Below are positions 1 through 12,558 of a DNA stretch of 12,558 nucleotides, piece by piece. Made by a program: the position numbers and the translations under genes. Origin of the DNA: a virus. The stretch's first letter is position 1, and the number at the start of each line of letters is the position of its first letter. The notes beneath the pieces are model-generated. The model was not told the DNA's origin, searched no databases, and saw only the letters and a list, made by a program, of their open reading frames with translations. The stretch lies in IMG/VR virus record IMGVR_UViG_3300045988_106316, positions 1 to 12,558 of that record. One strand, 5' to 3'.

Positions 1-55
1 CATGTACGGCCATGGTTGGGATTTGGAATTTGTGGAAGAGTGAGGTGTTATCATG
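1..55. repeat. Left inverted terminal repeat (55 bp)
   Basis: Bases 1-55 (CATGTACGGCCATGGTTGGGATTTGGAATTTGTGGAAGAGTGAGGTGTTATCATG) equal the reverse complement of 12504-12558 at every position. Identity ends at base 56 (G on the left, A on the right). The repeat reaches the very first and last base of the window. Confidence 0.95.
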
Positions 56-83
56 GCGGCCTATGCGGCCGCCTCATTTTTTT
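55..83 (+). terminator. Intrinsic-terminator-like hairpin just inside the left ITR (plus-strand sense)
   Basis: GGCGGCC (55-61), loop TATGC, GGCCGCC (67-73), then TCA and T7 (77-83). Near-identical to the minus-strand hairpin at 11710-11736. Confidence 0.6.
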
Positions 84-119
84 GAAAACAAACGATAAGA
101 GGGCCATTTCTGGCCCTCT
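84..119 (-). terminator. Rho-independent terminator of the late (structural) operon
   Basis: On the minus strand, 14 nt after the tailspike stop (134): AGAGGGCCA, loop GAAA, TGGCCCTCT (perfect 9-bp GC-rich stem, 119-98), followed by TATCGTTTGTTTTC. Confidence 0.75.
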
Positions 120-133
120 GACGGGGTGCGCGT

Positions 134-1510
134 TTAATCTCGTTTCACTCGTACGGTGGCCGTAAGTGCAAAGCTTTTGATGCCGCTTTCTTCGCTCGTA
201 TAGAATCGAATCTCGCTAGCGCCTGAGATAGCAAACATGTTAGTATTTGCCGCAGCGTATGCCGCTCCAAGGTATCCCGCATGATAGGTATATGATATCG
301 GATAAAAGGGCGCCGGAATTTTAGCTACGTCCACATATCCCCTCGTATTACCACTGAATGATATTGAACCGTGAATCTCAACCGTTACCGTGTCATCCTC
401 AATATACATGCGGTTACTGTCGATCGTTGCCCCATTTATGGGTGTTACCTCGACATAATAACTTGTTTTTGCGGGTACGTCGATATAGTCGGTGAGTGTC
501 AAGCCGGTTAAGCGGCCCGAAAATTGACCGTCGCATAGTTTGTTTATTTTATGCCCATTTCCCTGTATACCGTTGATATAAACCTTTGTAGTATCTCCGG
601 CGAAAAGTACGCAATTGGGCTTGTTATCATGATAAGCCAGAAGGTCATAAACAAACAATAGTGTATCGTTTGCGACGTTGAAACTGATATCAAAAGTGTC
701 AGTTGTGCATGCCGTGAAAATGTTATAATCTTCTTTGATATCGGCAAACTTGGTATTGTTCCAACTGCTGCTTGACGTGTTCCAGCAATGACAAAAACTG
801 ATTCGGTTATTACCGCCGGTCATATCGAAAATCGTTTGATAGTTTACTGCATAAACCTCTTTGAAATGACAATCCCACGACTGGCATTTAACGGCAATAT
901 TTCCCAGTGCACCATCAGCATTGAACAAAAGCGCTTTGGATAGCGTGACTTCGTAACCGGTTACGACATCAATGAAATTTTTACAATGAATTGAATATAC
1001 ATTGGTAATGAATGTGTTATTGCTTCGTGAAATTTTAATCATAGTTGCAGGCGAATCATTACCATCAAAACAGATTGCGTTAAAAGATGATGCATATCCC
1101 ATGCTGTTATAGTCAATTACGGGGGTTTGCATGCTTCCCGGGCATTTAAGATACGAATAACCAAAGTTACAATGAACTGGGCCATTTACTTTAATCGTAT
1201 CAGTAACATAATATGTTACGCCGAAACTGTAAAGCGTTTTTTTGCTGGTAGTAGCTGCATCAAAAGCCGCTTGGAGTGCTGCCGTGTCATCTGTCACGCC
1301 GTCGCCCTTCGCGCCGAACATTTCCGGCGTCAAGAAGCTATTAGCGACTTCTGCCGGAATAGCGTCAACCTTTTTGGTTAGCGCGTTATATTTGTTATTC
1401 AGTTCGTCAAATTGAGCTTTGAAATCGGCTTGCGATCCTTTAATTGTGCCTAAAATCCAATCGAGATTGAGATTGTGCAAATTGCTGTAGGGCCATTCGT
1501 TAAACCACAT
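134..1510 (-). CDS. Tailspike / appendage protein with pectate-lyase-type beta-helix (putative polysaccharide depolymerase, receptor binding)
   Basis: 458-aa ORF with RBS AAAGGGGGG 8 nt upstream of the ATG. FGAKGDGVTDDTAALQAAFDAA is the hallmark start of Pectate_lyase_3-type right-handed beta-helix domains, the fold class of the phi29 gp12 appendage. The N-terminal ~25 aa (MWFNEWPYSNLHNLNLDWIL) plus a helical linker look like a virion-anchor module. It is the last gene of the operon, in the gp12 position. Confidence 0.8.
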   Translation of the reverse strand: MWFNEWPYSNLHNLNLDWILGTIKGSQADFKAQFDELNNKYNALTKKVDAIPAEVANSFLTPEMFGAKGDGVTDDTAALQAAFDAATTSKKTLYSFGVTYYVTDTIKVNGPVHCNFGYSYLKCPGSMQTPVIDYNSMGYASSFNAICFDGNDSPATMIKISRSNNTFITNVYSIHCKNFIDVVTGYEVTLSKALLFNADGALGNIAVKCQSWDCHFKEVYAVNYQTIFDMTGGNNRISFCHCWNTSSSSWNNTKFADIKEDYNIFTACTTDTFDISFNVANDTLLFVYDLLAYHDNKPNCVLFAGDTTKVYINGIQGNGHKINKLCDGQFSGRLTGLTLTDYIDVPAKTSYYVEVTPINGATIDSNRMYIEDDTVTVEIHGSISFSGNTRGYVDVAKIPAPFYPISYTYHAGYLGAAYAAANTNMFAISGASEIRFYTSEESGIKSFALTATVRVKRD

Positions 1511-1525
1511 ATTTTTTACCCCCCT

Positions 1526-2290
1526 TTAATATACACCGATACAGAATTTATCAATAAATTCGTTCACGATAATTGAATAGATATCGGTTTGACGCAGGTC
1601 GAGTTCGGCCTCCACCATCCGCTGATTCGTTGTTACGCCGATATTGCCATGAGTATGTATAACAGTATGCCGTGTGTCGCCGCCCGTGTATCCTTTGTTG
1701 CGATTATCGCCGCCCGTGTATCCTTTGTTGCGATCATCGCCGCCCGTGTATCCTTTGTTGCGATCATCGCTGCCCGTGTAGCTGCGCGTATCGTCGCTGT
1801 GGTCTTCGCTGCTGCTGCTGTCGGTAACCTGTAGGTCGCCGCTGTTGTACCCTGTTCGGCTGTTTTGTGTGCTGCCGCTGCTGTTGTTGTTTCCGCTGTC
1901 CGTCAGATTGCGAGTGTAATTATCGTTTTCTTTAAGGTCTCGCGTGTAATTATCGCTTTCTTTAAGGTCTCGCGTGTAATTATCGCTTTCTTTAAGGTCG
2001 CGCGTGTAGTCTTCAAGATGATCTTCGTATCTGTCGGTATTTTCAATTGGGTTATACTCTGCATCGAGTGCCGCTGCAATCCGCGCCCATGCGTTTTGAC
2101 GGCCGTTGCTCCATGCTCCGATAATCACTCGCAAAATATCCGGGTTTGGATATAGTATCTCAAGCTCTGCCGCCTCGCTGATAATCAAATCAATGATTGT
2201 TTGCTGCTGTACGCTATCGGGAAGGTGCAACATCTCAAAAATATTGGGGTCATAATTATACATTCCCAAAATTGACATTGTTGCGGCCAT
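1526..2290 (-). CDS. Lower collar / proximal tail-tube connector-like protein (gp11 position) with internal decapeptide repeats
   Basis: ORF-track ORF 1526..2299 begins with GTG inside the RBS. The ATG at 2290 has GGAGG 8 nt upstream, giving 254 aa; ATGs at 2278 and 2263 are alternative starts. It lies directly after the portal gene, as phi29 gp11 does. The flanks (EYNPIENTDR ... HGNIGVTTNQRMVEAELDLR) fit my unverified recollection of gp11-family conserved blocks. The central part is 4 x (D/N)YTR(D/N)LKE(S/N)D and 4 x KGYTGGD(D/N)RN. Confidence 0.6.
   Translation of the reverse strand: MAATMSILGMYNYDPNIFEMLHLPDSVQQQTIIDLIISEAAELEILYPNPDILRVIIGAWSNGRQNAWARIAAALDAEYNPIENTDRYEDHLEDYTRDLKESDNYTRDLKESDNYTRDLKENDNYTRNLTDSGNNNSSGSTQNSRTGYNSGDLQVTDSSSSEDHSDDTRSYTGSDDRNKGYTGGDDRNKGYTGGDNRNKGYTGGDTRHTVIHTHGNIGVTTNQRMVEAELDLRQTDIYSIIVNEFIDKFCIGVY
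1677..1780 (-). repeat. 30-bp tandem repeat array A (coding, about 3.3 copies)
   Basis: Unit CGCCCGTGTATCCTTTGTTGCGAT(T/C)ATCGC occurs at 1681-1710, 1711-1740 and 1741-1770, with a partial copy at 1771-1780. It encodes the KGYTGGD(D/N)RN repeats of the collar-like protein. Confidence 0.95.
1914..2008 (-). repeat. 30-bp tandem repeat array B (coding, about 3.2 copies)
   Basis: Unit GTGTAATTATCG(T/C)TTTCTTTAAGGTC(T/G)CGC occurs at 1914-1943, 1944-1973 and 1974-2003, with a partial copy from 2004. It encodes the DNYTRDLKES repeats. Confidence 0.95.
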
Positions 2291-3188
2291 CCTCTGCACC
2301 TCCGTTCAGATTTTGTGAGAAGTCAACCCACAATTTACCGTCAAGCTCTGGGAAAAGCTCAACGCATTTCTTCATTCCCGCGCGCATTTCATCGAGCCAC
2401 AATTCGGCTTTGCTGCGCGTGTAGATATCGCCTTTGTTCACCTCGTCGGTAAGCAGGCGCTCCTTTTTACGTACAAGCAAATTGGGAATACCAATTTCAG
2501 CGCGGAACGCTGCTTGCACATTTTGCAAAGCCTCGATTAGGTCGGGCGTGATGAAATTCTGCCCGACATTCTGCGTCAAAAGCTGCATGCCCTGCGAATC
2601 ATCAGGACGCTTTTTGCTGCTTTCGCGGTATACCACAAGCGGAATACCGCTTGCGATCTGGTCATAGCCGGTTTTATACGCTTCGGCCTCGGCTTTGCTT
2701 GTGCTGTATGCGGTATAGGACATATGCGAGTTAAGCACGTTGACGGCTGCGCATTGCCAAATCAGCGCCATCATGTTTCCGTAATTGTCAATGATATCAC
2801 GGATACTGCCGAAATCCGGCTGCACCTTGATAATCTCGCAGTCTTTTCCGATACGCAGTTCGCGCGCCTGCAATAGTGGATTTGCTACAATGGCGCGAGT
2901 AGGCATATAGTAGACATTGCGCCCGGACAGGCTGCACGGCTGCGCGATGATTCCAAACAGGTCTGTTTTGAGTACAGCGACAAAACCGCAACCGATCAGC
3001 CAATATCGAAAGGCGTCTGCATCAATGCTATCAGGCAACGTAAAATCATATACGCTGATAGCATCCTGCAAGAGATACCGCTTGAAAACTCGCGCAATTT
3101 GCGTATCATTGATATGTAGGAAAGACGGATGTATCATACCATCGACAGAGTTTAAAAACTGGTATGTAAACGGTGGATTGTATGCCAT
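2256..3188 (-). CDS. Portal (head-tail connector) protein, phi29 gp10-like
   Basis: The ATG at 3188 overlaps the upstream stop (TGATG), with AAAGGAGTG upstream. This gives 310 aa; phi29 gp10 is about 309 aa. The block IGIPNLLVRKKERLLTDEVNKGD closely resembles the phi29 connector segment as I recall it ([23 protein letters not shown]). The ORF-track start at 3224 adds 12 aa with no RBS. Confidence 0.85.
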   Translation of the reverse strand: MAYNPPFTYQFLNSVDGMIHPSFLHINDTQIARVFKRYLLQDAISVYDFTLPDSIDADAFRYWLIGCGFVAVLKTDLFGIIAQPCSLSGRNVYYMPTRAIVANPLLQARELRIGKDCEIIKVQPDFGSIRDIIDNYGNMMALIWQCAAVNVLNSHMSYTAYSTSKAEAEAYKTGYDQIASGIPLVVYRESSKKRPDDSQGMQLLTQNVGQNFITPDLIEALQNVQAAFRAEIGIPNLLVRKKERLLTDEVNKGDIYTRSKAELWLDEMRAGMKKCVELFPELDGKLWVDFSQNLNGGAEDGRNNVNFGNV

Positions 3189-3811
3189 CAAATCACTCCT
3201 TTCCGAAATTTGAATAATAGCCAAATCGGTAATTTTTTGCCCGGCAATGGCGGCAGTACACCGCCGAAAAACTCATACCATGCCGCCGCCTGTTCGCCGC
3301 GACTTCCCGGCCCCTGCGCGCTGCTGCGCTCGTATTGCCAATAGTACGCTTCGGCCAGTGTTCGCGGATCGTCGGTTGATTTTTTGAATCCCGGCCATGT
3401 GTAGTTGAATCCCTCATTGCTATACCAATCTCGCCCGGTTGTCGCGCTGTACTCATGGAAGAGCATCTGCACATCAATAGCTGATAGCGGGTTGTCATCT
3501 GTTGCAGTTGGCGAGATGCCGAGATTTGTCAACGCCCAATCTCCAATTTTGCGCCCCCATGGGGTCCACTGCGGGAGACCAAAGCCGCCACTGCGTGTTG
3601 TCGGAAAATTTGCTGACGTTGGATAATTGGGATTTAGGCGACACTCGCTTTCCCAGTTTCCCAGCATCGCGCAAGCGCTATTGATCGTAAACCCCAGCGC
3701 GCCCAGATACGCCGCAAAAACGGTTGCGTTTTGCTCCATCTGTGCGCGGTCCGGGTAGACGCGGAACGTGTGGAAATAAGATGCAAAATCAGGAGGCTGG
3801 ATGTCACTCAT
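3188..3811 (-). CDS. Tail-associated peptidoglycan hydrolase (phage tail lysozyme domain, phi29 gp13 N-terminal-domain-like)
   Basis: The ATG at 3811 overlaps the upstream stop (ATGAGTGA), giving 207 aa. LGNWESECRLNPN ... GGFGLPQWTPWGRK ... YYWQYERS matches the Phage_lysozyme2 (PF18013) pattern GN-ES-NP / GxGLxQWT / yER. The ORF-track start at 3964 would overlap the upstream gene by 160 nt. Confidence 0.7.
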   Translation of the reverse strand: MSDIQPPDFASYFHTFRVYPDRAQMEQNATVFAAYLGALGFTINSACAMLGNWESECRLNPNYPTSANFPTTRSGGFGLPQWTPWGRKIGDWALTNLGISPTATDDNPLSAIDVQMLFHEYSATTGRDWYSNEGFNYTWPGFKKSTDDPRTLAEAYYWQYERSSAQGPGSRGEQAAAWYEFFGGVLPPLPGKKLPIWLLFKFRKGVI

Positions 3812-5255
3812 AGTAAAAGCCCCCGCGCAAAAAAGATATAATTGCATCGTGCTCTTCAGCCGTCGCCACGACGTACAGCTCCGGGTTTTGACACATGATA
3901 AACCCGGATAGGCTTTTGATATTACGCACAGCGCACAATGGCCTGCCAGCTCGTGCGTTGTCATTGTCCACCAGGATTGAAAAATCAGCTCTCAAAATAG
4001 GTGGTAGCTGATAGGCCGCAATGCTGCCGGACGCTGACAGCGTTTGCACCGTCGGCGTGCTCGTCGGAACAACCTCATTGATAGCAGCTTGCGCGAAACC
4101 ACTTGCAATATTGCCGTAGTTAGACCAGCTTCGCACGCCTGCTTTAACCGCGCCCATAATGCCCTGTCCCGCTGCCGTGGCAGGTGGAGGCGCCAGAAGC
4201 CCGGTAACACCGCTTGCAATACTGTCAAACATGCTCATTGTAACCTGTGATAGCTGGATATCAACCCCCACCGATGCAGCAGTTCGCAGAATTTCGCTCG
4301 AACCCGCCGAGAAAGTCGAAATGCCGTTACCTGATACACAATCAACCAATGTCGATACAGTGAGCGCTTTAGCGTCGCCGCGGACGAAAAAATCCGGTGC
4401 GATTGCCACATCCCCCCACGGCCCATAGTTATAGGTGAGGCGTGTATAAGGGCTGCCGTTGAGATAGCCCCCGCGCGTCGCTGCCTGCGGGTGCTGCGGA
4501 ACATCCAGCGTCCAAGTGTCTTTGAAAATCGGCGTTTTTGCAAGGCGCTTGCAGTTGACAGGGAGGGTCCACCACCCTACTTTAATTGACGCTTGCAAGT
4601 CTCCCTCTGTCGGCGCAACAAAGGGGAACCATTTACAGCTCACAATATACTGAAATGGGTTAAACAGTGTTTTGGCAAGCTCGCTTGAAATCTCGCTTGA
4701 TGGGATCTGCAAATAATCCGTGTTGATAAATAGTGCATCTCTGAGCGCTGCCATGTATGACTGTGTCAATACATAATAACTTGTACCGCCCCGAGCATTG
4801 TCGTCGCCGTTGATAACACCGATCACATAAGTGCCATCACCCAGGTTTGAGGTCCACGGAAAACTAGCAACCGTCCGGTCCATTGTGATTCCGGCTTTGG
4901 CGCTGTAAAATCCATCGGGCACAAATTCATCGTATTCAGACGCCGAGCGCAATACATATTGCGCTGAATTCCCAATCTCCGTGCGCCAGCTTGCCAGCAC
5001 GTCAACCGCGCAGTCAGCTATCCACAATCCATCTTGCCACGTCCACGATGCGAAATAGTACCGCGACCAAATCGGAATGTGAATATAATTGATCTGTGCT
5101 GGCGTCCAGCCGTCTACCATGTGAAAAACAAGAGACGGCGAAAGAATGCTGCAAACGTCTTTGAGTTCGCAGGCATAAGTCACTCCGTTTGCTGGCTTTG
5201 GTATGGCTGTGCTGTCCGCCTTTTTTGCAAACGAATACAGGATTACATCAAGCAT
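3804..5255 (-). CDS. Tail knob / distal tube protein (gp9-like), structural
   Basis: 483-aa ORF with RBS AAAGGAG upstream, lying directly after the capsid gene. The N-terminal pattern INYIHIPIWSRYYFASWTW...AVDVLASW resembles the phi29 gp9 N-terminal region as I recall it (NYIMFQNPNYSNKWFYAFVT...EIDVIQTW). This is unverified. Confidence 0.5.
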   Translation of the reverse strand: MLDVILYSFAKKADSTAIPKPANGVTYACELKDVCSILSPSLVFHMVDGWTPAQINYIHIPIWSRYYFASWTWQDGLWIADCAVDVLASWRTEIGNSAQYVLRSASEYDEFVPDGFYSAKAGITMDRTVASFPWTSNLGDGTYVIGVINGDDNARGGTSYYVLTQSYMAALRDALFINTDYLQIPSSEISSELAKTLFNPFQYIVSCKWFPFVAPTEGDLQASIKVGWWTLPVNCKRLAKTPIFKDTWTLDVPQHPQAATRGGYLNGSPYTRLTYNYGPWGDVAIAPDFFVRGDAKALTVSTLVDCVSGNGISTFSAGSSEILRTAASVGVDIQLSQVTMSMFDSIASGVTGLLAPPPATAAGQGIMGAVKAGVRSWSNYGNIASGFAQAAINEVVPTSTPTVQTLSASGSIAAYQLPPILRADFSILVDNDNARAGRPLCAVRNIKSLSGFIMCQNPELYVVATAEEHDAIISFLRGGFYYE

Positions 5256-5273
5256 CTTTCGCCGTCTCCTTTA

Positions 5274-6497
5274 TTAGTCGAGCAGGAACACAACGCCGTT
5301 TTCCGTCGTGTCGTTCCAGTAGCGCCGCCAGAAATGCCAGAAAGTATTGTAGTATCTGCCGCGCGCGTTAATCGGGGTCATTTCGACGCCGTCGCCGTCG
5401 TTGACGATACTGTAACCCATAGCCCAGCGATCATACAGGACGCCCAGCATGTAAGGAGCGGATACCGCCGCGCCCTTCACCGCGCTGCCCTCGCTGTTAA
5501 GCATCGTCGGGGTTACGTTGATTCCCGCGCCCTGCTTGACATCCTGCCAGTAGTCAAGCGAATCATGCGGTACGAGCTTCAAGAAGTTTTCATTGAACGT
5601 CCACGGGAGAACCATTTTCTGAATCATATTCTCGAACGGTGCATAGAACAGCATGCGCTGGTCAGCTTTGGGCGTGATGCGAAGGAGCTTTCCGGCGCTC
5701 TCGCCGCCCGCCTGCTGGTGATGCATCACCGTGAGATTGCGCGACATTAGGTCAGATGCCGTCTGGATACGCGCGCAAAGCCAGCCCACAAAATCCGCAA
5801 AATTTTCCGGCTGGAATACCGTTGTAGCCGTAAGCGCCTTCCCCGTGAGAGTGTTATACTCCGTCAGACAATGCACGACATGCACCGGCGAATTATCCGC
5901 ATTTGCTGCTGCGATTTTCGCGCCCGCGAAATTGCAGACCGTACCGTGTCCGAGCGCGGTTTTCTGCTGGTTGATGAGATTCTGCGCTGCCGTGAACTGA
6001 CTGCCCAGCCACTGGCCATATTCAGCAGGCCCGCGCAAAGACATACGCATAGCGTTTGTGTGGATGGAAGGTCCCTGCACGCACCACTGAACAGCCGACG
6101 TGAACGACGTTTCCAGCGTCTGGGGCAGATTCATTTTCCACTGGTCCACGCTCTCGCCGTTCTTCGGTCTGTCCTGCTGCTCGGGGTTTTCCTGCGCGCT
6201 GTCCGGGTCAACAATTGGCGTCAGCTTGCGCACAACAAAACCCCAGTCCACGTCATCCGCATCGAGAAGCGTGATACCGCCCATGTACGGACGAATGGAA
6301 AAAATCGTGCGTGCGATCAGCGCCGTCATGGAGCGGGTCAGCGCGTCAGTACCGCAGGTAAGCCCGCGCTGCGCCAGCGCGACAAACTGCGACGTATCAA
6401 CAGGCGTTTCGAGCGGATTCGCGTTCCTGCCCTGCGCGCCCGCAACGATCGTATTCAAGATTGTTGCAATCTGCGTGAAAGAATAGGGGTTAGCCAT
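5274..6497 (-). CDS. Major capsid protein (phi29 gp8-like HK97-fold core)
   Basis: 407-aa ORF whose ATG overlaps the scaffold stop (TAATG), with GGAGGTGG upstream. The position after the scaffold-like gene fits. The C-terminal LGVLYDRWAMGY...NARGRYYNTFWHFWRRYW resembles the recalled gp8 segment VLVDKDWFMVY...NPRGLYWNYYYHVWQ. Confidence 0.8.
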   Translation of the reverse strand: MANPYSFTQIATILNTIVAGAQGRNANPLETPVDTSQFVALAQRGLTCGTDALTRSMTALIARTIFSIRPYMGGITLLDADDVDWGFVVRKLTPIVDPDSAQENPEQQDRPKNGESVDQWKMNLPQTLETSFTSAVQWCVQGPSIHTNAMRMSLRGPAEYGQWLGSQFTAAQNLINQQKTALGHGTVCNFAGAKIAAANADNSPVHVVHCLTEYNTLTGKALTATTVFQPENFADFVGWLCARIQTASDLMSRNLTVMHHQQAGGESAGKLLRITPKADQRMLFYAPFENMIQKMVLPWTFNENFLKLVPHDSLDYWQDVKQGAGINVTPTMLNSEGSAVKGAAVSAPYMLGVLYDRWAMGYSIVNDGDGVEMTPINARGRYYNTFWHFWRRYWNDTTENGVVFLLD

Positions 6498-6808
6498 TAC
6501 TTACCACCTCCCGGAATAACCTGCGCAAGCGCCTGCTCTGCCGTCAGCTGCTGCGGCTCCGCGCTGCCCATCATCGACCTAAACATACCCTGCAAAGCTG
6601 CCGTCTGCTGCTGCTGCGCCGCGATCAGCGGCGAAAGGTCAAGCGCGGGGGCCTGCACCGGCTGCATCTGCTGCACCGGCTGCATGGGCTGCATGGGCTG
6701 CATGGGCTGCATGGGCTGCATGGGCTGCATGGGCTGCAACATCTGGTTAATCTGGTCAACCGTAAAGCCCGCTTTCATCATTTCATAGGACTTTTCAAAC
6801 AGTGTCAT
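6497..6808 (-). CDS. Scaffolding-like protein with (QPM)n repeat
   Basis: 103-aa ORF with RBS AAAGGAGG 8 nt upstream. It is small, Q/A/M-rich and probably helical, and lies immediately upstream of the capsid gene, as phi29 gp7 (98 aa) does. The function is assigned by position only. Confidence 0.45.
6651..6740 (-). repeat. 9-bp tandem repeat (GGCTGCATG)n, coding
   Basis: Six perfect copies at 6678-6731 are flanked by degenerate copies (GCCTGCACC, GGCTGCATC, TGCTGCACC, GGCTGCAAC). The array encodes [28 protein letters not shown]. Confidence 0.95.
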
Positions 6809-6947
6809 TTTTCGTTCCTCCTTTCTTCGTCTCGCGGAAAACCTGCATGCTCACGACGTCAAGATCTGCGCCGACTTCCAGCCGCTCGGTCTGAATCGCG
6901 CCGCTTGCGTCTTTGGTCTCGATATCAATATAACTCGTGTAACTCAT
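6795..6947 (-). CDS. Small hypothetical protein (50 aa), not in the ORF track
   Basis: ATG at 6947 is preceded by AAGAGGTGA (the last codons and stop of the endolysin gene) at good spacing. Translation: [50 protein letters not shown]. Its stop overlaps the scaffold start by 14 nt. It fills an otherwise unexplained 143-nt gap in a very compact genome. Confidence 0.5.
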   Translation of the reverse strand: MSYTSYIDIETKDASGAIQTERLEVGADLDVVSMQVFRETKKGGTKNDTV

Positions 6948-6951
6948 TGTA

Positions 6952-7467
6952 TCACCTCTTTTCGATTGCCTCAATCAGTGTGTTAATCTGGTCACGGATA
7001 TCAAGTAAATCCTGCATGATATCGTCGAGCGTCACGCCGTCCGGCTGCGTATCTTCCTCAGGATATGCTACATCATAAACCTTTGCGTGATGTGTCCATC
7101 TGCCGTCACTGATGCTGGACATCTGCACGCCGCCCGTTGTGCTGTGCATCACTTCGCCGTTGCCCAGATACAGCCCTACATGCTTTGCATTGCCCATATC
7201 GTCATGATAACCGCGCGCCACTTCGCCGCCGTCATGCCGCACCGTAAAAACCCATTCGCCCGGCTGAATCGCGGCCATATCGTCCGAGCGATCATAAACA
7301 GCATCGCGCCACATCTGATTACTTCCCCGCCAATTTTTGGAGAGCGCATTGCAGTCTTTGAGCACCTGTTCCACAAACGCCTGACAATCAAGCTGCTTAT
7401 ATGGTGTACCCAGATAGCCGCCAGTGAGAGCGCGATCTACATAAGCATCAGCTTTCACCTTCGCCAA
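6952..7467 (-). CDS. NlpC/P60 (C40) family cell-wall endopeptidase, endolysin
   Basis: Catalytic-type motifs are present: PYKQLDCQAFVEQVL (Cys) and HVGLYLGNGEVMHS (His). The preferred start is TTG at 7467, 7 nt after GGAGGTG and overlapping the end of the upstream small membrane protein gene (171 aa). The ORF-track ATG at 7521 lacks an RBS and would overlap that gene by 74 nt. Confidence 0.8.
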   Translation of the reverse strand: MAKVKADAYVDRALTGGYLGTPYKQLDCQAFVEQVLKDCNALSKNWRGSNQMWRDAVYDRSDDMAAIQPGEWVFTVRHDGGEVARGYHDDMGNAKHVGLYLGNGEVMHSTTGGVQMSSISDGRWTHHAKVYDVAYPEEDTQPDGVTLDDIMQDLLDIRDQINTLIEAIEKR

Positions 7468-7651
7468 TTCTGAGCACCTCCAAGATTCGGCTGAGCGCCT
7501 GCGTGTTGTTGTTAAGTGCATCGGTCATTTTGCTAACTTCCTCTTTGTGCGCATCGTCGCTCAGCCTGCGATCATAGAGCAAGTAGCAGCAGATTGCAAT
7601 AGGGAATCCCATTTGCTGGACAAACTGGACAAAAGTCTGCCAAAATTCCAT
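7448..7651 (-). CDS. Small single-pass membrane protein, YvrJ-like; candidate holin
   Basis: 67 aa, with RBS GGAGGTG 5 nt upstream. The N-terminal hydrophobic segment QQMGFPIAICCYLLY resembles the YvrJ-family core (GFPIVVTFYLL, from memory). The C-terminal tail is charged. It lies immediately upstream of, and overlaps, the endolysin gene. Confidence 0.5.
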   Translation of the reverse strand: MEFWQTFVQFVQQMGFPIAICCYLLYDRRLSDDAHKEEVSKMTDALNNNTQALSRILEVLRIGEGES

Positions 7652-7661
7652 GCTAACACCT

Positions 7662-7749
7662 CCAATAAAAATCAGTCAACCATTTTTGTGCGGATGCCTC
7701 GCGCGCCCCGCCCCTTCTGGGGGCTGCATGTGGGAGATGGTTGACTGTT
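7662..7749 (-). ncRNA. Candidate ~85-nt structured RNA or leader attenuator, closed by an 11-bp helix and a U-tract
   Basis: On the minus strand, CAGTCAACCAT (7747-7737) pairs perfectly with ATGGTTGACTG (7683-7673). The helix encloses a 53-nt GC-rich core with an inner GCCCC-N5-GGGGC hairpin and is followed by ATTTTTATT, then the RBS of the next gene. It starts a few nt downstream of the predicted transcription start of the 7756-7784 promoter. No coding potential. Confidence 0.35.
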
Positions 7750-7755
7750 GATATC

Positions 7756-7784
7756 ATTATATTCTGTTGTTGGAAAAATTGCAA
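7756..7784 (-). promoter_or_regulatory. Near-consensus sigma-A/sigma-70 promoter (late operon and/or small RNA)
   Basis: Minus strand: TTGCAA (7784-7779), 17-nt spacer TTTTTCCAACAACAGAA, TATAAT (7761-7756), with an A/T-rich UP-like tract upstream. It lies in the only sizeable intergenic gap (7652-7798). Confidence 0.65.
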
Positions 7785-7798
7785 TATATATTATAGTA

Positions 7799-8845
7799 TC
7801 ATATCATGCCTAGATAACCACGGAAAATAAGCTCTGTATCGTAACTATCAAACGTCAAATAGTTCTCAAAATATAGCGTTTTCATAAGCCCGTATCGCTT
7901 GCGCCATTGCTCAAGGCCGAACCCCTGCGGGTCATATGCGCGCGTTTTCTGCGCGGCCCTGCAAATATAAAATTCCCGGCGCGATTTGTGGCGATACATG
8001 CCGATTGTGCCAATCGTGCAAAGATATTCAAACTCGATCAGTGGCCGGGATGCAACCCTCGTCGGGTCTACATAAAACGCGTTGTTTATGGCCATTTCAA
8101 TAAAATCCTGCGGCGCGTTTTTGTATAGCCCGGTCTGCATTTTCCGGCGGCTTATCGGACTATCTTGCAATATAATCATTGCCCGGCTCCCATCAGGTGA
8201 GCGATAGATCATCTGTTTACCGCGAATCATTTTAATGGCAGTGCTCATAAAATCCCAACCAATATAATAGGGATTTGCTAGCTGATTGGCATTGCCCAAC
8301 AACAACGCTTTCACAGGCGCGAGGCCCTGCAATTCGCGATTTCTGTTCACTGTTTCATAAAAATCCAAAAACGCCGTGAACTCGTTCGTAAGCGTCCGCT
8401 CAGTCGTGAGCGGAATGTACTCATCAAAAACGATGGTATCAAACCCCGAAAAATCCATGCCGCGGACATTTGCCAACGCTGACAAACTCGTGCCCACGCC
8501 GAGTAGAGCACCATCCGGCGCGATTTTCCCGCGCTTATTCTGTGCGGCCTCGTAAAACGCGACCATATCAGCGGACAGGGAAAACGCCTGCACATTCCAG
8601 CCCATATCCTTGTTGAGTCGTGCAAAGGGGTTGCCCACAGGTGTCCGCGCTTTCAAGATCTGCGTGCCCCAGCGCCTCAACCACACAAATTTTCCGCCGC
8701 CATTGCGTACAATTTCAACCGCGCGCTTTGCGACTCCATATGTTTTTCCAGTGCCACGCGACGACGTGACAGTCACAAAATTAGACGCACTATCCCAAAT
8801 ATAATCAATATTTGGATAGCCATTATCAAGATACAACTTTCCCAT
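7799..8845 (-). CDS. DNA encapsidation (packaging) ATPase, phi29 gp16-like
   Basis: The ATG at 8845 (GGAGGG 9 nt upstream) gives 348 aa; the ORF-track TTG is at 8869. Walker A is SSRGTGKTYG and Walker B is DTIVFDEYI. Blocks match recalled gp16: NFVTVTSSRGTGKTY vs NFVIGARGIGKSY, KFVWLRRW vs QFIYVRRY, ETVNRNRE vs DTVFRNRE, and LGNANQLANPYY vs LSNAVSVVNPYF. Confidence 0.9.
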   Translation of the reverse strand: MGKLYLDNGYPNIDYIWDSASNFVTVTSSRGTGKTYGVAKRAVEIVRNGGGKFVWLRRWGTQILKARTPVGNPFARLNKDMGWNVQAFSLSADMVAFYEAAQNKRGKIAPDGALLGVGTSLSALANVRGMDFSGFDTIVFDEYIPLTTERTLTNEFTAFLDFYETVNRNRELQGLAPVKALLLGNANQLANPYYIGWDFMSTAIKMIRGKQMIYRSPDGSRAMIILQDSPISRRKMQTGLYKNAPQDFIEMAINNAFYVDPTRVASRPLIEFEYLCTIGTIGMYRHKSRREFYICRAAQKTRAYDPQGFGLEQWRKRYGLMKTLYFENYLTFDSYDTELIFRGYLGMI

Positions 8846-11006
8846 TTTGTTTAGCCCTCCAACTTCCAAACAAGTTTATTTTTGTAAGCAGCCGCTCATA
8901 ATCATCAGAATGAGACATTGTATAACTATTCTGCACCATCGCCACATTACGGGTAATGTGTAGATCGTGTCCATCCACTTTAATCCAAAAATCCGCGCTG
9001 TCATTGTAGACTGATATGCTGCCAGCCGCCAACGTCCAGACCATACCGCCCTCCCGCAGCCGTCGGCCTTTTTCATCCTTTTTATAACGCCCGGCTTCAT
9101 CTTGTGCATATCGTCCGGGTTTAAATGCAGGCAAGCCTCCGGCCTCTTTAAGTTCAAGCGCACCCAGCGTCAAACCTGCTGATTTGACTTTTTTTGTGCT
9201 GACACCTGAGACGGTCACTCCAAGTTTGCCATCACGTTCATAAGCATATCGTTTTGCCCCCTGCGTGATAAATCGGTCATAGCCATCCTCCTTGTCAAAA
9301 ACGCCCATATAATACACCTTGCCATTACGATCATGTGCATATGCTCCACAGCGTTTCGCGCGATCAACCAAGCGTGCATTGAGCTGAGACAAATCAATAG
9401 GAGCATCTGTTTTAACACTGTCAGTATCATTATAGACAATGTTGTCTCCCGCGATCTGTATTGCCTCGTGCAGCGCATAGCGCGCCCAAGCGGTCGTGTA
9501 TACACCCCATTGATAGGGGAAATATGCTTTTTCAAGCGCCTGCCGTTTTTCCTCGTCTGTTTTATGCACTGCTTGATAGTCGCCGTCGATAAATTGTATT
9601 GACTCGCGTATCGGGTCTTGCGCACTCATGCCATAGATGCCGTTCAACTTGTTCTTCGATTTCATATACTGGTATTGGCGCTCGTCCGCAGCATCTTCTG
9701 ATTCGCCGTCAGGGCCATTTTTCAACATTGTTTTATCCTGATAATATTTATCTATCACATCAAGATACTGTTTGGGCAGTGGCCCTTTGCGCGCGATCAT
9801 TGCTTCTTCACATGCGATTTTATCCGCGCAATATTGGCGCATAACAACCGCCAAATCGATTTCTGTAAGCGTCGTTGTGCAAAGATCTGCTGACAGCAAT
9901 CGGCCATTGTCAACCACAAAAACGCTGCTTTGCGTTTTTGACAGCGACAAATAGGGCACTGGTTCCCGCTCATTGCGTAAGCGTAAGCCGGAAAACACAT
10001 AGCGCCCGACAACCGCGCGCCCATGCCGGATATAATCAATGATGTTCGCCATTTGTAAATCATCGCCGCTGAGCCAGCGAAATGGGGTAATTGGAAAGTT
10101 TCTTGTTCTCTGCTGCGCGGGATATGCCGACGTTTCGTCATACGATTCGACGTTATCAAGGATTTTTCCCACTTTATAGCGATTTGCATGTGTATCACCG
10201 CCACGAAAAGCCGCCCGAAGCATCGCATACTCCCGTTGATAGGGGAGTATTGATTCGATCTTCCATCTAATCGGCCACAGCGCCGCTTTAGCGTCTCGCC
10301 GTACATAGCCGGTAGACGTGAGGGGCAACGTGTGCAGTGTATCTCCATCGCGTTTCATTTCCGTCTTGATCGCCTCCACAAGGCCCAATACATCGTTAAT
10401 ACAGTATTGCGTCTCATAGTCGGTCAATTCTGACCATGGATAGCGCACAATATCATAATCAAAAGTGTCACCGTCTAGTTTGCGATGCTCGCATTTCATA
10501 ATTTCTGTGAATTTTGATAGACTCATATTGCTATGCATGTAGCTACATCGAAATTCAATACAGCCCAGCATGCGCGCATATATCGGTTTGCGCGCCTCCC
10601 GCAAAAAGACTTCTTCCGGCTGGAATGGATAAAGCCCAGCCAGAAATTGAAATTCATAAGCGAGATTATGTACAAACATCACCAGATAAGGTTTTGTGTC
10701 AAGATTGTTCGATTCCTGCAAAGCCGCACACATTTCATCAACATGGCCGAGAAATGCAAAAAACTCATCCCAATAGCGGCCCATGATAACATCTGAGTTT
10801 ATTGCAACCTGCCACACATACATAAAAGCATGTGGCTCATCCTCGCCGTTCTCCATGCGATGCAAAACCGACGTTTCAATGTCGAAAGCCGCCACCACGT
10901 TGACATATTCCACTCGCTGACTTTTTGCACGCTTTCCGCGTTTTCGCGCTGCTATGCCGCTCTCATAGATACGCTCAAATGGGTAAGTCTCTGCTGTATA
11001 TATCAA
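8826..11006 (-). CDS. Protein-primed family-B DNA polymerase
   Basis: 726 aa. Motifs: Exo I AAFDIETS; Exo II FVHNLAYEFQF (phi29 YFHNLKFDGAF); Exo III QYCINDVLGLVEA; motif A SYDETSAYPAQ (Dx2SLYP); motif B KNKLNGIYGMSA (Kx3NSxYG); motif C IVYNDTDSVKT (YxDTDS); and the KxY-like GAKRYAY. The start must lie upstream of Exo I. TTG at 11006 overlaps the upstream stop (TTGA). Confidence 0.93.
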   Translation of the reverse strand: MIYTAETYPFERIYESGIAARKRGKRAKSQRVEYVNVVAAFDIETSVLHRMENGEDEPHAFMYVWQVAINSDVIMGRYWDEFFAFLGHVDEMCAALQESNNLDTKPYLVMFVHNLAYEFQFLAGLYPFQPEEVFLREARKPIYARMLGCIEFRCSYMHSNMSLSKFTEIMKCEHRKLDGDTFDYDIVRYPWSELTDYETQYCINDVLGLVEAIKTEMKRDGDTLHTLPLTSTGYVRRDAKAALWPIRWKIESILPYQREYAMLRAAFRGGDTHANRYKVGKILDNVESYDETSAYPAQQRTRNFPITPFRWLSGDDLQMANIIDYIRHGRAVVGRYVFSGLRLRNEREPVPYLSLSKTQSSVFVVDNGRLLSADLCTTTLTEIDLAVVMRQYCADKIACEEAMIARKGPLPKQYLDVIDKYYQDKTMLKNGPDGESEDAADERQYQYMKSKNKLNGIYGMSAQDPIRESIQFIDGDYQAVHKTDEEKRQALEKAYFPYQWGVYTTAWARYALHEAIQIAGDNIVYNDTDSVKTDAPIDLSQLNARLVDRAKRCGAYAHDRNGKVYYMGVFDKEDGYDRFITQGAKRYAYERDGKLGVTVSGVSTKKVKSAGLTLGALELKEAGGLPAFKPGRYAQDEAGRYKKDEKGRRLREGGMVWTLAAGSISVYNDSADFWIKVDGHDLHITRNVAMVQNSYTMSHSDDYERLLTKINLFGSWRAKQNGKVVS

Positions 11007-11695
11007 CGCCGAGCCTCGTCATCAAAAAATTCCATAGCAGCCTCATAGAGCGGCCCCAGCTCGCCTTCTGTTGACGGCTCATTATCAAGAGCGGATAAAG
11101 CTGCTTCGATTTCCTGCTCGCGATCTGCAAGATAATCTTGCATATCTGCAAGCACATCTTTCACAGATGCACCCTCGCGCATCTGGTCCGCCATGCGTCG
11201 CACCTCGTCGCGAAATTTATAAATGCTGTAATCCTGTTTTGCGCTATCCAAAAAATGGATGTAGTCCATCCAATCGTGGACATTTGTGGGATTGATAGCA
11301 CTCTGCATATCAGACGGCAACCAATCGCGCACACCATCGACAAAGTTTTTGGTTTTCTCATCGCGCCACAGCGAATTGGCGGCTTTTCGGCGCTGTTCAC
11401 GCTCTTTTGTGCGCCTTGTAAGCTCTCGGACACGATTATTATAATCCCTGATATACGCGTCTCGCTGCCTTTGTCTTTCCAGTTCACGCGCGCCAGACAC
11501 TGTTGTGTCCTTGCGCGCTACCAAGCGTTTCAGCCGAGCAAGCGAATTTCTGAGGTCTCGCGCTGTTTTAATATCCGCCAACCGCGCCCCCGTGTCAAGC
11601 GGATTGAATCCAGCAGACACAAGTCGTCTGCTTCGATCTTGTAATAAATTTCGGAGACGGCGATATTCTGCGCGGGTTTTTTCACTGCCAACCAT
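11003..11695 (-). CDS. Candidate terminal protein (replication primer), assigned by position
   Basis: 230 aa with RBS AAGGAGG 7 nt upstream. It lies immediately upstream of the protein-primed polymerase and is translationally coupled to it, as phi29 gp3 is to gp2. It is highly charged and helical, with a basic N-terminus and an acidic C-terminus. I recognise no sequence motif. Confidence 0.45.
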   Translation of the reverse strand: MVGSEKTRAEYRRLRNLLQDRSRRLVSAGFNPLDTGARLADIKTARDLRNSLARLKRLVARKDTTVSGARELERQRQRDAYIRDYNNRVRELTRRTKEREQRRKAANSLWRDEKTKNFVDGVRDWLPSDMQSAINPTNVHDWMDYIHFLDSAKQDYSIYKFRDEVRRMADQMREGASVKDVLADMQDYLADREQEIEAALSALDNEPSTEGELGPLYEAAMEFFDDEARR

Positions 11696-11709
11696 TATAC
11701 GACCTCCTT

Positions 11710-11736
11710 AAAAATGAGGCGGCCTAATAGGCCGCC
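11710..11736 (-). terminator. Intrinsic terminator/attenuator between the SSB and terminal-protein genes
   Basis: Minus strand: GGCGGCC, loop TATTA, GGCCGCC, then TCATTTTT, followed immediately by AAGGAGG and the ATG at 11695. It is a near-copy of the hairpin at 55-83. Confidence 0.65.
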
Positions 11737-11742
11737 ATAATA

Positions 11743-12099
11743 TCAACGTTTGCGTCTGTATTGAGACGTGGGCTGCGTATCAGACGGCGAGCGCGACATG
11801 AAATCAAACGTTTCAACATTGACTTCATGTGCATTCACGCGGCATCCGTCCTTATCGGTATAAGTATACAGCCGGATAGAGCCGCACAGCGCGAGCTTAT
11901 CGCCTTTACGGCAATACTTGCCAATGAGTTCAGCCGCGCCACCCCATGCCGTGCAGTGGAAAAAATCAGCCGGGTCATCTTTTTGCCGACCGGGCACTGC
12001 AAGCGTGAATTTTGCCAGTGTGCGAGTTTCGTCTTTAACTTGCACCTCGCGGATTTCAGGATCTGCCGTAAAACGACCTACGATATAAAGCTTATTCAT
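11743..12099 (-). CDS. ssb: Single-stranded DNA-binding protein (bacterial-type OB fold)
   Basis: The ATG at 12099 (GGAGG 6 nt upstream) overlaps the RHH stop (ATGAATAA), giving 118 aa. MNKLYIVGRFTADPEIREV...LAKFTLAV...DFFHCTAWGGAAE...KGDKLALCGSIRLYTYTDKDG fits the PF00436 SSB pattern. The C-terminus is basic (QYRRKR), not the canonical acidic tip. Confidence 0.85.
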   Translation of the reverse strand: MNKLYIVGRFTADPEIREVQVKDETRTLAKFTLAVPGRQKDDPADFFHCTAWGGAAELIGKYCRKGDKLALCGSIRLYTYTDKDGCRVNAHEVNVETFDFMSRSPSDTQPTSQYRRKR

Positions 12100-12262
12100 G
12101 TTCTGCCTCCATGCGCTTCGCGCGTCTATCTTTTTCATTGTAGTAGCGGTTGATAATCATTGTGAGCAGGGCTGACCGACTGATTCGTCGTTTCTCTGCA
12201 TCCGTGGTCAGGCGCTCCAAGAGCGCTGTATCTATTGTCACCGTCGCGGCTGTTTTCCGCAT
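12092..12262 (-). CDS. Ribbon-helix-helix (CopG/Arc/MetJ-type) DNA-binding protein, probable transcriptional regulator
   Basis: The ATG at 12262 has AGGAGGTG 6 nt upstream, giving 56 aa. The N-terminal beta-strand TVTID is followed by two helices (TALLERLTTDAEKRRISRSALLTMIINRYY), the typical RHH layout. The ORF-track ATG at 12280 lies inside the RBS. Confidence 0.65.
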   Translation of the reverse strand: MRKTAATVTIDTALLERLTTDAEKRRISRSALLTMIINRYYNEKDRRAKRMEAEHE

Positions 12263-12311
12263 AAAAAACACCTCCTGCATAAATCAGACCTTGGTAAGTG
12301 CCGCATAGCTC

Positions 12312-12506
12312 TTAAATATTCGCCCATCGTAACCACCCCCGCAGAATAAGCTCTGCGCTGCCTCCAGTGACTTGAGATAGCGCCTCAGCGCATGCGCTCA
12401 AATCGTGGATGAGATAGAGCTGCGCATAGCCGCAACGCCTCGATCTGACTATGATTGACAGCACTTCCCGGCGGATGAACTCTTGTATCGTTCCAGACTG
12501 ATTCAT
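12312..12506 (-). CDS. Hypothetical early protein (64 aa); start codon and RBS lie within the right ITR
   Basis: The ORF has RBS AGGTG 6 nt upstream of the ATG at 12506. I recognise no motif. Whether it codes is uncertain, because any promoter would have to fit in the terminal ~40 bp. Confidence 0.4.
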   Translation of the reverse strand: MNQSGTIQEFIRREVLSIIVRSRRCGYAQLYLIHDLSACAEALSQVTGGSAELILRGWLRWANI

Positions 12507-12558
12507 GATAACACCTCACTCTTCCACAAATTCCAAATCCCAACCATGGCCGTACATG
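12504..12558. repeat. Right inverted terminal repeat (55 bp)
   Basis: Perfect reverse complement of 1-55. Its inner end carries the RBS (GAGTGAGGTG) and ATG of the first minus-strand ORF (orf64). Confidence 0.95.

Follow-up and report, generated by a model that had tools for sequence, protein, structure and literature searches.

The stretch of DNA analysed here (the window; 12,558 nt) is, at a probability of about 90%, the unique core (12,448 bp) of the linear, protein-primed genome of a phi29-like podophage of the human gut, flanked at each end by 55 nt, the k-mer size of the assembler, of one of two much longer inverted terminal repeats (ITRs). We reach this reading because the length of the repeat equals k, because relatives extend past the window ends, and because both ends cut through a conserved 68-aa gene. 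The initial annotation had described a complete, unidirectional genome of 12.6 kb bounded by perfect 55-bp ITRs. As judged from related sequences, each true ITR measures about 500 nt, which would bring the full genome to about 13.4-13.6 kb. Phi29-type small tailed phages of the human gut are a kind already known.

Window ends and inverted terminal repeats

The features at the two ends of the window are as follows:
1-55, no strand: inner 55 nt of the tail-spike-end ITR; length set by assembler k=55, not by biology
2-43, plus strand: last 13 codons and stop of the 68-aa gene (MYGHGWDLEFVEE*), in the tail-spike-end ITR copy
55-81, plus strand: hairpin terminator (GGCGGCC-TATGC-GGCCGCC and T-run), directly after the ITR copy
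98-119, minus strand: hairpin 3' of the tail-spike gene that resembles a terminator of the late operon
12557-12516, minus strand: truncated 3' end of the 68-aa gene, in the early-end ITR
12504-12558, no strand: inner 55 nt of the early-end ITR; length likewise set by assembler k

The arms, 1-55 and 12504-12558, are perfect complements (100%, 55 nt) that touch both window ends, so an exact inverted repeat is indeed present, but it is not the whole ITR. A repeat of the same 55 nt is found in scaffold L001, which is independent of the window and stops at the same bases. Three contigs from the same sample as the window (ERR589826) go further, namely: k119_133102, which is 100% identical to the window and runs 64 nt past its end, with a repeat of 55+64=119 nt; k127_130528 (L002/L026), which is 100% identical and runs 72 nt past the end; and k127_78064 (L029), which agrees with the window at every position over 4,056 nt. 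In both k127 contigs the repeat is 55+72=127 nt, and the two have exactly 127 nt in common, in inverted orientation. The repeat length tracks the assembler k, and the 55-bp repeat is an assembly artefact at the inner edge of the ITRs.

At least 14 relatives (91-96% DNA identity) also continue about 247-440 nt past the window ends, with L008, L009, L011 and L017-L025 reaching 247-440 nt beyond position 12558. The supposed terminus 5'-CATGTACGG lies within the codons ..A-M-Y-G.. of the 68-aa gene, and in ERR589826 it would be continuous outward with ...GAAAATATGATCTATGC. The extension sequence makes this ORF whole, and 20 homologues of it were found. The ribosome-binding site (RBS; GAGGTG) and ATG of the next gene are at the inner boundary of the early-end ITR. 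The exactness of the repeat at both ends, together with the coincident end of L001, is what a complete 12,558-bp genome with real ITRs of exactly 55 bp and ends at 5'-CATGTACGG would give; yet such a genome is very improbable given three 100%-identical assemblies that run 64-72 nt further in step with k, the extended relatives and the severed ORF, and the same break in the k=55 graph accounts for where L001 ends.

The 72-nt tail of L002 is absent from the window and might thus be taken for host or other foreign DNA, adjoining an integrated element (a prophage or self-synthesising transposon) or joined in a chimeric contig. We give this hardly any weight, since the tail, once reverse-complemented, matches the first 72 nt of L029 at the opposite end (127 nt identical), codes for the C-terminal part of the 68-aa protein of the phage itself, and is homologous to L008 369-440 and L011 1-88. 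Moreover, all 59 of 59 relatives in genome collections are free contigs of at most 14.3 kb, never inside bacterial DNA.

Assembly errors can also yield inverted-repeat ends, and the genome might instead be circular or terminally redundant, with the repeat a fold-back chimera. The chance of this is minimal: many assemblies and samples that are independent of one another show ITRs (L012, L014, L011, L035, L036 and HM2), no direct terminal repeat was found in the window, and the polymerase is of the protein-primed type. L012 has an exact terminal ITR of 182 nt and L014 one of 252 nt, while the inverted copy in L011 runs from the window's ITR boundary for about 480 nt to the contig end. In addition, contig ends cluster at one position: eight of them (L008, L009, L012 twice, L020 and L035-L037) fall within 8 nt of one another, at 5'-CCCTATTGTATTGACTG.

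The unique core with longer ITRs is thus retained, and its physical terminus is likely to lie at about 5'-CCCTATTGTATTGACTG, with true ends that begin 5'-CCC; the exact terminus is uncertain because the first bases differ among contigs (CCCTATTG vs CTCGCCTATTG). The absence of a terminal reiteration, remarked on in the initial annotation, is moot because the window ends are not genome termini. ITR lengths vary among relatives (about 180, about 500 and about 710 nt). For the window's own strain, 72 nt past each window end are directly seen, and we infer the outer ~370 nt and the terminal bases by extrapolation from the relatives of 91-96% identity. Within each ITR would lie the terminus with the replication origin (~5'-CCCTATTGTATTGACTG...), a promoter for early transcription (TTGAAT-17-TATAAT) and the complete 68-aa gene, and then the RBS and start codon (ATG) of the gene that follows. 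The single coding direction holds for the window, where all 15 long ORFs are on the minus strand, but not for the full genome, in which the tail-spike-end ITR copy would place the 68-aa gene on the opposite strand.

Early and late genes of the unique core

The early block, all on the minus strand, comprises:
12312-12506: 64-aa early protein, whose ATG is the final 3 nt of the ITR
12092-12262: ribbon-helix-helix (RHH; CopG/Arc-like) regulator, 56 aa as called
11743-12099: single-strand DNA-binding protein (SSB), 118 aa as called
11718-11736: hairpin terminator between the SSB and terminal-protein-candidate genes
11003-11695: 230-aa protein, helical and highly charged, whose position alone makes it the terminal-protein candidate
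8826-11006: protein-primed-type family-B DNA polymerase (PolB), 726 aa
7799-8845: gp16-type DNA packaging ATPase, 348 aa as called (PF05894, 1.5e-12)

PolB matches PF03175 (8.6e-7) and phrog_1907 (3.9e-54), and its sole PDB match is the phi29 DNA polymerase (3e-8). In line with a phi29-type, protein-primed enzyme, its Exo I/III, YxGG, A, B, C and KxY motifs align with phi29 DNA polymerase, as do insertions of TPR1/TPR2 size; the Exo II Asp of phi29 is Glu throughout the window's PolB clade. The 3' end of the polymerase gene and the ATPase gene overlap, and the 230-aa gene is translationally coupled to the polymerase gene by an ATGA overlap. The terminal-protein gene proposed next to the polymerase is a candidate by this position: profile searches of the 230-aa protein against PDB, Pfam and PHROGs revealed no similarity to known terminal proteins, and Foldseek with a pLDDT-71 model gave no match to a known terminal-protein fold. 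As a terminal protein, it would prime DNA synthesis at both ends and remain covalently attached. The ITR promoter would read the 68-aa, 64-aa, RHH, SSB, terminal-protein-candidate, PolB and gp16 ATPase genes.

The late block, also on the minus strand, comprises:
7756-7784: late promoter (TTGCAA-17-TATAAT)
7748-7672: 77-nt structured RNA with a three-way junction, behind the late promoter
7448-7651: holin-like membrane protein, 67 aa, first gene of the late operon
6952-7467: NlpC/P60 peptidase, 171 aa as called, candidate endolysin
6497-6808: 103-aa PMQ-repeat-rich protein, scaffold-like
5274-6497: major capsid protein (MCP), 407 aa, phi29-like (weak Pfam match)
3804-5255: 483-aa structural protein, encoded between MCP and portal and at the position of phi29 gp9 (tail knob)
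3188-3811: tail lysozyme, 207 aa as called, gp13-like (Phage_lysozyme2 domain, PF18013, 3e-19)
2256-3188: portal/upper collar connector, 310 aa as called, gp10-like (PF05352, 4e-9)
1526-2290: 254-257-aa protein at the position of phi29 gp11 (lower collar)
134-1510: tail spike/appendage protein, 458 aa, gp12-like, pectate-lyase fold

The clear promoter reported downstream of the ATPase gene is present at 7784-7756. It is of the sigma-70 type and would drive the leader RNA and then the holin, peptidase, scaffold, capsid, tail, portal and spike genes. The phi29-like gene order, the linear genome and the reality of the ITRs are supported, and the gp16-, gp10-, gp13- and gp12-like assignments agree with the Pfam matches and the pectate-lyase tail spike. 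The gp8-like MCP has a weak match to Phi29_MCP (21.4 bits, below the 27-bit cut-off) but is similar (27.5% identity, E 2e-35) to a protein annotated as hypothetical and encoded between the packaging-ATPase and portal genes of Amedibacillus phage AD70P3. The 483-aa and 254-257-aa proteins have no family match; the former is kept in all relatives and the latter in relatives including AD70P3. The 254-257-aa gene contains two 30-nt tandem repeat arrays. A 9-nt tandem array (6641-6756) in the 103-aa gene is collapsed or uncertain, as other assemblies break there or have at least 59 nt more. The terminator at 55-81 is 89% identical to that after the SSB gene.

A structured RNA at the head of the late transcript

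The RNA at 7748-7672 is a previously undescribed structured RNA at the start of the late genes. It consists of P1, an arm of P2a, a 7-nt internal loop and P2b, and P3, with a U-rich tract after P1; AUGC in the internal loop can pair with GCAU in the loop of P3. Covariation is very strong and includes this loop-loop pairing, which is arranged like that of the phi29 packaging RNA (pRNA). No match was obtained in Rfam, either to riboswitch, ribozyme or leader families or to pRNA (RF00044), which in phi29 is a 174-nt RNA at the left end, and the covariance model of the late-leader RNA found nothing in AD70P3.

The layout nonetheless resembles that of pRNA, and a putative packaging role is suggested by this analogy. 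Both RNAs are from phages with a gp16/gp10 motor and have a three-way junction in which the 5' and 3' ends pair (helix A of pRNA, P1 here). The first arm in both has a 5'-side internal loop (the CE/right-hand loop of pRNA, J2 here) and a capped hairpin (E), while the second, a hairpin (D), carries a loop of which 3-5 nt can pair with that internal loop, and this complementarity covaries. The late-leader RNA differs in size (72-77 nt vs 117-174 nt), in its short closing helix (9-11 bp) without the CCA bulge, in its location, where the late transcript begins and not at the left end of the genome, and in showing no covariance-model similarity to pRNA.

Alternatively, the RNA may be a cis-acting leader of the late transcript (e.g. 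an antiterminator, attenuator, ligand sensor or 5' stabiliser) and not a packaging RNA, a possibility that we rate at somewhat short of even odds. A strong promoter always precedes it at the start of the late operon, also in L252 and L266, whose ATPase genes lie in another place, and P1 with its U-rich tract looks like a leaky terminator. On the other hand, its topology corresponds one-to-one to that of phi29 pRNA, it resembles no Rfam riboswitch, ribozyme or leader family, and it shows the covarying 3-5-nt pairing between internal loop and hairpin loop that is the hallmark by which pRNAs are recognised (PMC5066667, PMC12670572).

Comparison with known phages

Phi29 (Bacillus phage, Salasmaviridae) shares with the window phage the motifs of a protein-primed PolB, a linear genome with ITRs, the gp16 ATPase and gp10 connector, a lysozyme domain of the gp13 type and a gp12-like appendage. 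However, phi29 is 19.3 kb with 6-bp ITRs and divergent early and late operons, whereas the window phage would be about 13.5 kb, with gene-bearing ITRs of ~500 nt, a single coding direction and the ATPase in the early block. The small size, single coding strand and ATPase after the polymerase, which the initial annotation singled out as unusual, are common to AD70P2/P3, Astrithrvirus and more than 500 IMG/VR contigs; hundreds of gut contigs of 12.5-14 kb have the same traits.

The Amedibacillus phages AD70P2 and AD70P3 (OP172638/OP172639), labelled Guelinviridae and cultured from sewage, are close to the window in size (12.2-12.3 kb). AD70P3 and the window share a one-strand order of PolB, gp16 ATPase, capsid, 439-483-aa protein, portal, lower-collar-like and tail protein genes, but AD70P3 has three small genes, including a holin-like one, between PolB and the ATPase and three small end genes on the opposite strand. 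Homologues in AD70P2/P3 are detectable for 7 of the 15 window proteins, at low identity (PolB 34%, ATPase 29%, MCP 28%, portal 25%), the deposited records contain no ITR, and GC content is 27% (PMC11476376, Table 1) vs 50% in the window.

Astrithrvirus (Salmonella phage astrithr, 11.6 kb, with related phages of Gram-negative hosts) is also small and phi29-like, with PolB followed directly by the ATPase gene and short ITRs (18 nt in the record), but its portal/capsid gene order and tail genes differ and its PolB is 33% identical. The 'phages' collection contained no DNA-level relatives. Uncultured human-gut contigs of the phi29-like kind (MT836263, MT835998 and others, and IMG/VR UViGs) share the size class, habitat and gene order of the window. 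Table 1 of PMC11476376 also lists such gut clusters, among them 'Virus sp. ctxAI8' (13,382 bp, 49.8% GC), and five IMG/VR contigs belong to the same species-level group as the window (PolB 96-97%).

Gene content and relatives

The 15 long ORFs of the window all lie on the minus strand and, when read down from position 12558, follow a phi29-like order.

Genes of the window, numbered in the order read down from position 12558 (minus strand), with domain matches and E-values where found
1. 64-aa ORF
2. RHH regulator
3. SSB (PF00436, 1.4e-20)
4. 230-aa protein, no domain match
5. Family-B DNA polymerase, PolB, 8826-11006 (PF03175, 8.6e-7; phrog_1907, 3.9e-54)
6. gp16-type ATPase (PF05894, 1.5e-12)
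7. 67-aa protein, holin-like
8. NlpC/P60 peptidase
9. PMQ-repeat protein, scaffold-like
10. Capsid protein (Phi29_MCP, 21.4 bits, under the 27-bit cut-off)
11. 483-aa protein
12. Tail lysozyme (PF18013, 3e-19)
13. gp10 connector (PF05352, 4.3e-9)
14. 257-aa repeat protein in the lower-collar position
15. Tail spike, pectate-lyase

The core identification made in the initial annotation, namely a phi29-like protein-primed podophage (of the Salasmaviridae/Guelinviridae/Madridviridae type), is right: a phi29-type PolB, a gp16 ATPase and a gp10 connector are all found, and the domain and ORF searches bear out both the gene set and its placement on a single strand. The packaging ATPase and the connector also match phrog_2150 and phrog_2038, and the sole solved structure (PDB) matched by the PolB is the phi29 DNA polymerase (3e-8). 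We aligned the window PolB with five others, from phi29, AD70P3, astrithr and two gut relatives. The alignment contains Exo I, Exo III, YxGG, motifs A, B and C, TxxAR and KxY, together with insertions of TPR1 and TPR2 size; throughout the clade, Glu takes the place of the Exo II Asp. At residues ~640-665, the thumb region has a 23-aa Lys/Arg-rich insertion (GRYAQDEAGRYKKDEKGRRLREG) that the phi29, AD70P3 and astrithr enzymes, and those of the relatives L014 and L030, lack. The match of the capsid protein to the phi29-type (HK97-fold) family (PF25622) is weak. The capsid protein of another relative, L024, gives an unmarked match to the same family, and the protein in the capsid position of AD70P3, annotated only as hypothetical, is 27.5% identical to that of the window (E 2e-35). 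A member of the Tectiviridae or another tailless PolB virus, whose hallmarks we take to be a double-jelly-roll capsid protein, an FtsK-type ATPase and the lack of a portal, is ruled out by the portal, gp16 ATPase, tail lysozyme and tail spike. The lower-collar-position protein contains the 10-aa repeats DDRNKGYTGG and DNYTRDLKES, encoded by two arrays (1677-1780 and 1885-2004) of three 30-nt repeats each. A tRNA search found none.

We infer protein priming from the polymerase type, the inverted terminal repeats (ITRs) and the linear contig ends. The 230-aa protein, whose ORF has an ATGA overlap with the polymerase gene, is a candidate terminal protein (TP), a placing made only from its position, size and helical, charged character. 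An exhaustive search of 1.84 billion proteins returned 9 representatives of it. Phmmer finds no similarity to phi29 gp3 or any other TP, and no link to TPs emerges for the family from a profile search of the PDB, Pfam on 11 members or PHROGs; a Foldseek search of the PDB with its AlphaFold model (pLDDT 71) gives no E-value below 5. Terminal proteins usually lack detectable similarity to one another. In the 230-aa protein, two nearly invariant tyrosines, Y145 and Y159, are candidates for the priming residue.

Searched by megablast against 50,697 phage records, the window as a whole gives no match. At the protein level (tblastn), the PolB matches uncultured human-faecal phages of 12.4-14 kb (30-43% identity), the cultured Amedibacillus phages AD70P2 and AD70P3 (12.2-12.3 kb, 32%), Clostridium phage HM2 and the 11-12 kb Astrithrvirus group; its pairwise identity to HM2 and AD70P3 is 31-34%. 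For HM2, only the portal and tail spike are detectable beyond the PolB, whereas AD70P3 has a near-identical one-strand layout and detectable homologues for 7 of the 15 window proteins. An ATPase profile recovers at least 546 related IMG/VR contigs and, in addition, 59 contigs that are binned into gut MAGs, mostly of Clostridia; all 59 are at most 14.3 kb long and none is embedded in bacterial DNA. A 2024 review already describes many human-metagenome clusters of similar size, including 'Virus sp. ctxAI8' (13,382 bp, 49.8% GC), and places the Amedibacillus phages apart from the Clostridium Guelinviridae (PMC11476376); the GC content of the window is 49.7%. The small size, single coding strand and position of the ATPase after the polymerase, which had been regarded as unusual, are thus traits of the clade, as they recur in the relatives, AD70P3 and the gut contigs. 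Among the abundant phi29-like gut phages of 12.5-14 kb, this one is ordinary.

The 55-bp repeat and the true genome ends

The exact inverted copies at window positions 1-55 and 12504-12558 (55 nt, 100% complementary) had been read as the ends of a complete 12.6-kb genome. This reading is wrong, since other contigs pass the window ends and the repeat length equals an assembler k: the 55-bp ITR is a product of the assembly, and the window stops short of the genome ends. The same phage was traced in other assemblies by exact-protein look-ups. An ENA scaffold of 12,717 nt (L001) has ends identical to those of the window and differs from it only in a 9-nt tandem array (window 6641-6756, coding for (PMQ)n in the scaffold-like protein), where L001 carries extra copies as well as a 100-N gap. 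Run ERR589826 yielded two MEGAHIT k127 contigs, L029 for the early half and L002/L026 for the late half; both match the window at 100% identity and end inside this array. The copy number of the window is unreliable because every assembly breaks or has a gap there. Each k127 contig runs 72 nt beyond a window end, and their outer ends show inverted identity over exactly 127 nt, i.e. 55+72. Another assembly gave a k119 contig (L027) that passes position 1 by 64 nt, and 55+64=119. In a de Bruijn graph, where a unique segment abuts a longer inverted repeat, the resulting contig has k bases of repeat left at either end. The apparent ITR length of 55, 119 or 127 is therefore set by k, and the true inner edge of the ITR lies at 55/56 and 12503/12504.

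Sequence upstream of position 12558, from 247 to 440 nt of it, is present in five IMG/VR contigs and nine ENA/Logan contigs. The extending contigs share 91-96% DNA identity with the window, and the polymerases of the five from IMG/VR are 96-97% identical to that of the window. The outer region of one of them, L008, is organized as follows.

Outer region of the extending contig L008 (L008 coordinates)
Outermost: non-coding terminus
181-209: promoter, TTGAAT-17-TATAAT
277-483: 68-aa gene, whose last 13 codons and stop are the 'terminus' of the window

The apparent terminus of the window, CATGTACGG..., therefore encodes the end of this early protein (M-Y-G-H-G-W-D-L-E-F-V-E-E-stop), and the 72-nt extensions of both k127 contigs (L029 and L026), when translated, give the corresponding stretch that precedes it. 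The 68-aa protein has 20 homologues; neither it nor the 64-aa protein belongs to a family in Pfam or PHROG, and an exact-protein look-up of the 64-aa ORF gave no record. In the outer ITR, two tandem sigma-70-like promoters (L008 78-106 and 181-209) precede the 68-aa gene; the entire early promoter region is outside the window. The 276-nt non-coding leader of the outer ITR was considered as a source of a prohead RNA (pRNA) and rejected, as its fold is no more stable than those of shuffled sequences (z = +1.13).

Contig ends from eight independent assemblies fall within 8 nt of one another at CCCTATTGTATTGACTGATAACC (CTCGCCTATTG in L012), and L012, a contig of the same group, has an exact 182-nt ITR that ends at this position. 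The clustered end is likely the physical terminus, its exact first bases being uncertain, and the 5' starts of the genome likely lie near 5'-CCCTATTG. The termini had been thought to lack the short reiteration used in sliding-back initiation; this puzzle disappears, since the likely real end has a 5'-CCC run that would allow it.

At the tail-spike end of another contig, L011, an inverted copy starts at the ITR boundary of the window and continues for ~480 nt to the contig end, while L008 numbering gives an ITR of ~498 nt; from these we estimate an ITR of 498-518 nt. In the window strain itself, an ITR of at least 127 nt is seen directly; its outer ITR is absent among the 68-aa protein clusters searched. 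The genome is estimated at ~13.4-13.6 kb, namely: 12,448 bp, two ITRs and at least 59 nt of repeat array beyond what the window contains. ITRs at the ends of a linear genome, as proposed initially, are thus present in relatives and in longer-k contigs, and the 55-bp figure falls away.

In the full genome, the ITR copy at the tail-spike end would place the 68-aa gene on the opposite strand, converging on the tail spike gene, and its transcription would be stopped by the hairpin at 55-81. This hairpin terminator, next to the inner edge of the ITR at the tail-spike end, resembles the one that separates the SSB gene from the TP-candidate gene: 46-81 (plus strand) and 11710-11745 (as read on the minus strand) share 89% identity over 36 nt. 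The likeness, which includes 10 nt upstream of the stem, hints that the junction may have arisen by recombination.

Three ITR classes are found at the right-end junctions within one species-level group.

ITR classes among contigs 91-96% identical to the window
~175-182 nt: L008 (junction ~12952), L012 (182), L037
~500 nt, including the 68-aa gene: window (55/56), L038, L011 (12583-12728)
~704-708 nt, also including the 64-aa gene: L035 (~708), L036 (~704)

These steps (~180, ~500 and ~710 nt) may have arisen by copying of one early gene, or two, to the opposite end, and the polymorphism offers natural material on how ends are extended and homogenised in protein-primed genomes. Long ITRs are also found in relatives (252 nt in L014 and ~170 nt in HM2).

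An exact ITR whose length is a common assembler k (55, 77, 119 or 127) thus marks a repeat boundary and not a genome end, and a truncated linear genome can be taken for complete where completeness is judged from terminal inverted repeats. L008 itself, an IMG/VR contig, finishes with exactly 77 nt of its own ITR (12952-13028 against 99-175), a k-mer signature (k=77) like that of the window's 55, so a completeness flag that rests on the ITRs of such a contig may be unreliable.

A structured RNA at the start of the late operon

A structured RNA is encoded after the late promoter (7784-7756) and ahead of the holin gene, in an intergenic stretch whose conservation exceeds that of the genes on either side. 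At least 119 IMG/VR contigs contain its 21-nt core, GCAGCCCCCAGAAGGGGCGGG, without a mismatch.

Copies of the late-leader RNA
Window: 7748-7672, minus strand
L030: 7945-8018
L013: 4516-4589
L014: 5059-5129
L252: 3201-3276
Others: ~50 further loci

A covariance model (CM) built from one sequence type only recovers the window copy (E 7e-10) and 52 further copies, whose carriers have ATPases ~30-48% identical to that of the window; it gives no match in AD70P3, and no cultured carrier was found. As MAFFT misaligned the closing helix between the two RNA types, a CM-based alignment was used instead. In this model-fitted alignment, the RNA forms a three-way junction with paired 5' and 3' ends and all four helices (P1, P2a, P2b and P3) covary: 98% of cells are paired, double changes occur in 19 of 21 pairs, and the covariation score is 0.908 as compared to 0.194 for shuffled and at most 0.141 for slid alignments.

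In addition, the 7-nt internal loop of the first arm (J2) and the hairpin loop of the second (L3) share 3-5 nt of complementarity. Watson-Crick pairing of at least 3 nt between the loops is found in all 34 distinct sequences, using 11 different sequence pairs; shuffles reach a mean of 13.9 and a maximum of 23 of 34 (2,000 trials). This result is independent of the CM, which held no information on the pairing. Rfam gives no match at E<=1 on the window or at E<=10 on 7640-7790, and only spurious ones in the L008 repeat array. Judged by sequence and covariation, the RNA appears to be an undescribed family with a pRNA-like topology.

We consider that the RNA may be a compact prohead/packaging RNA, with a probability of about 0.4. 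Its layout maps one-to-one onto that of phi29 pRNA: helix A, a C/E arm with the right-hand CE loop and a D hairpin with the left-hand loop. Interlocking loops that covary are the accepted pRNA hallmark (PMC5066667, PMC12670572). It departs from the pRNAs of the phi29 family in that these are 117-174 nt long with a long helix A carrying an ATPase-binding CCA bulge, whereas the late-leader RNA has 72-77 nt, a P1 of 9-11 bp without a bulge, and no similarity to the Rfam pRNA CM. The RNA may instead be a cis-acting leader of the late transcript, a reading that we hold just as tentatively. Its placement favours such a leader: in L252 and L266 the RNA follows the late promoter wherever the ATPase gene sits, and a tie to that gene can be rejected. 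The pRNA-like layout and interlocking loops speak against a leader.

To our knowledge, pRNA-dependent packaging is documented so far only in Bacillus relatives of phi29. If the RNA is indeed a pRNA, this mode of packaging would extend to a large phi29-like clade of gut Clostridia phages. Counted by the exact core, this clade comprises at least 119 IMG/VR contigs; counted by a related ATPase, it comprises at least 546 contigs. The RNA thus provides a concrete molecule on which to ask whether phi29-like phages outside Bacillus use pRNA, and it is the item worth following up here, the kind of phage being already known and abundant. In one distant relative, L266, a putative tRNA-like sequence (~6010-6080) lies directly downstream of the late-leader RNA.
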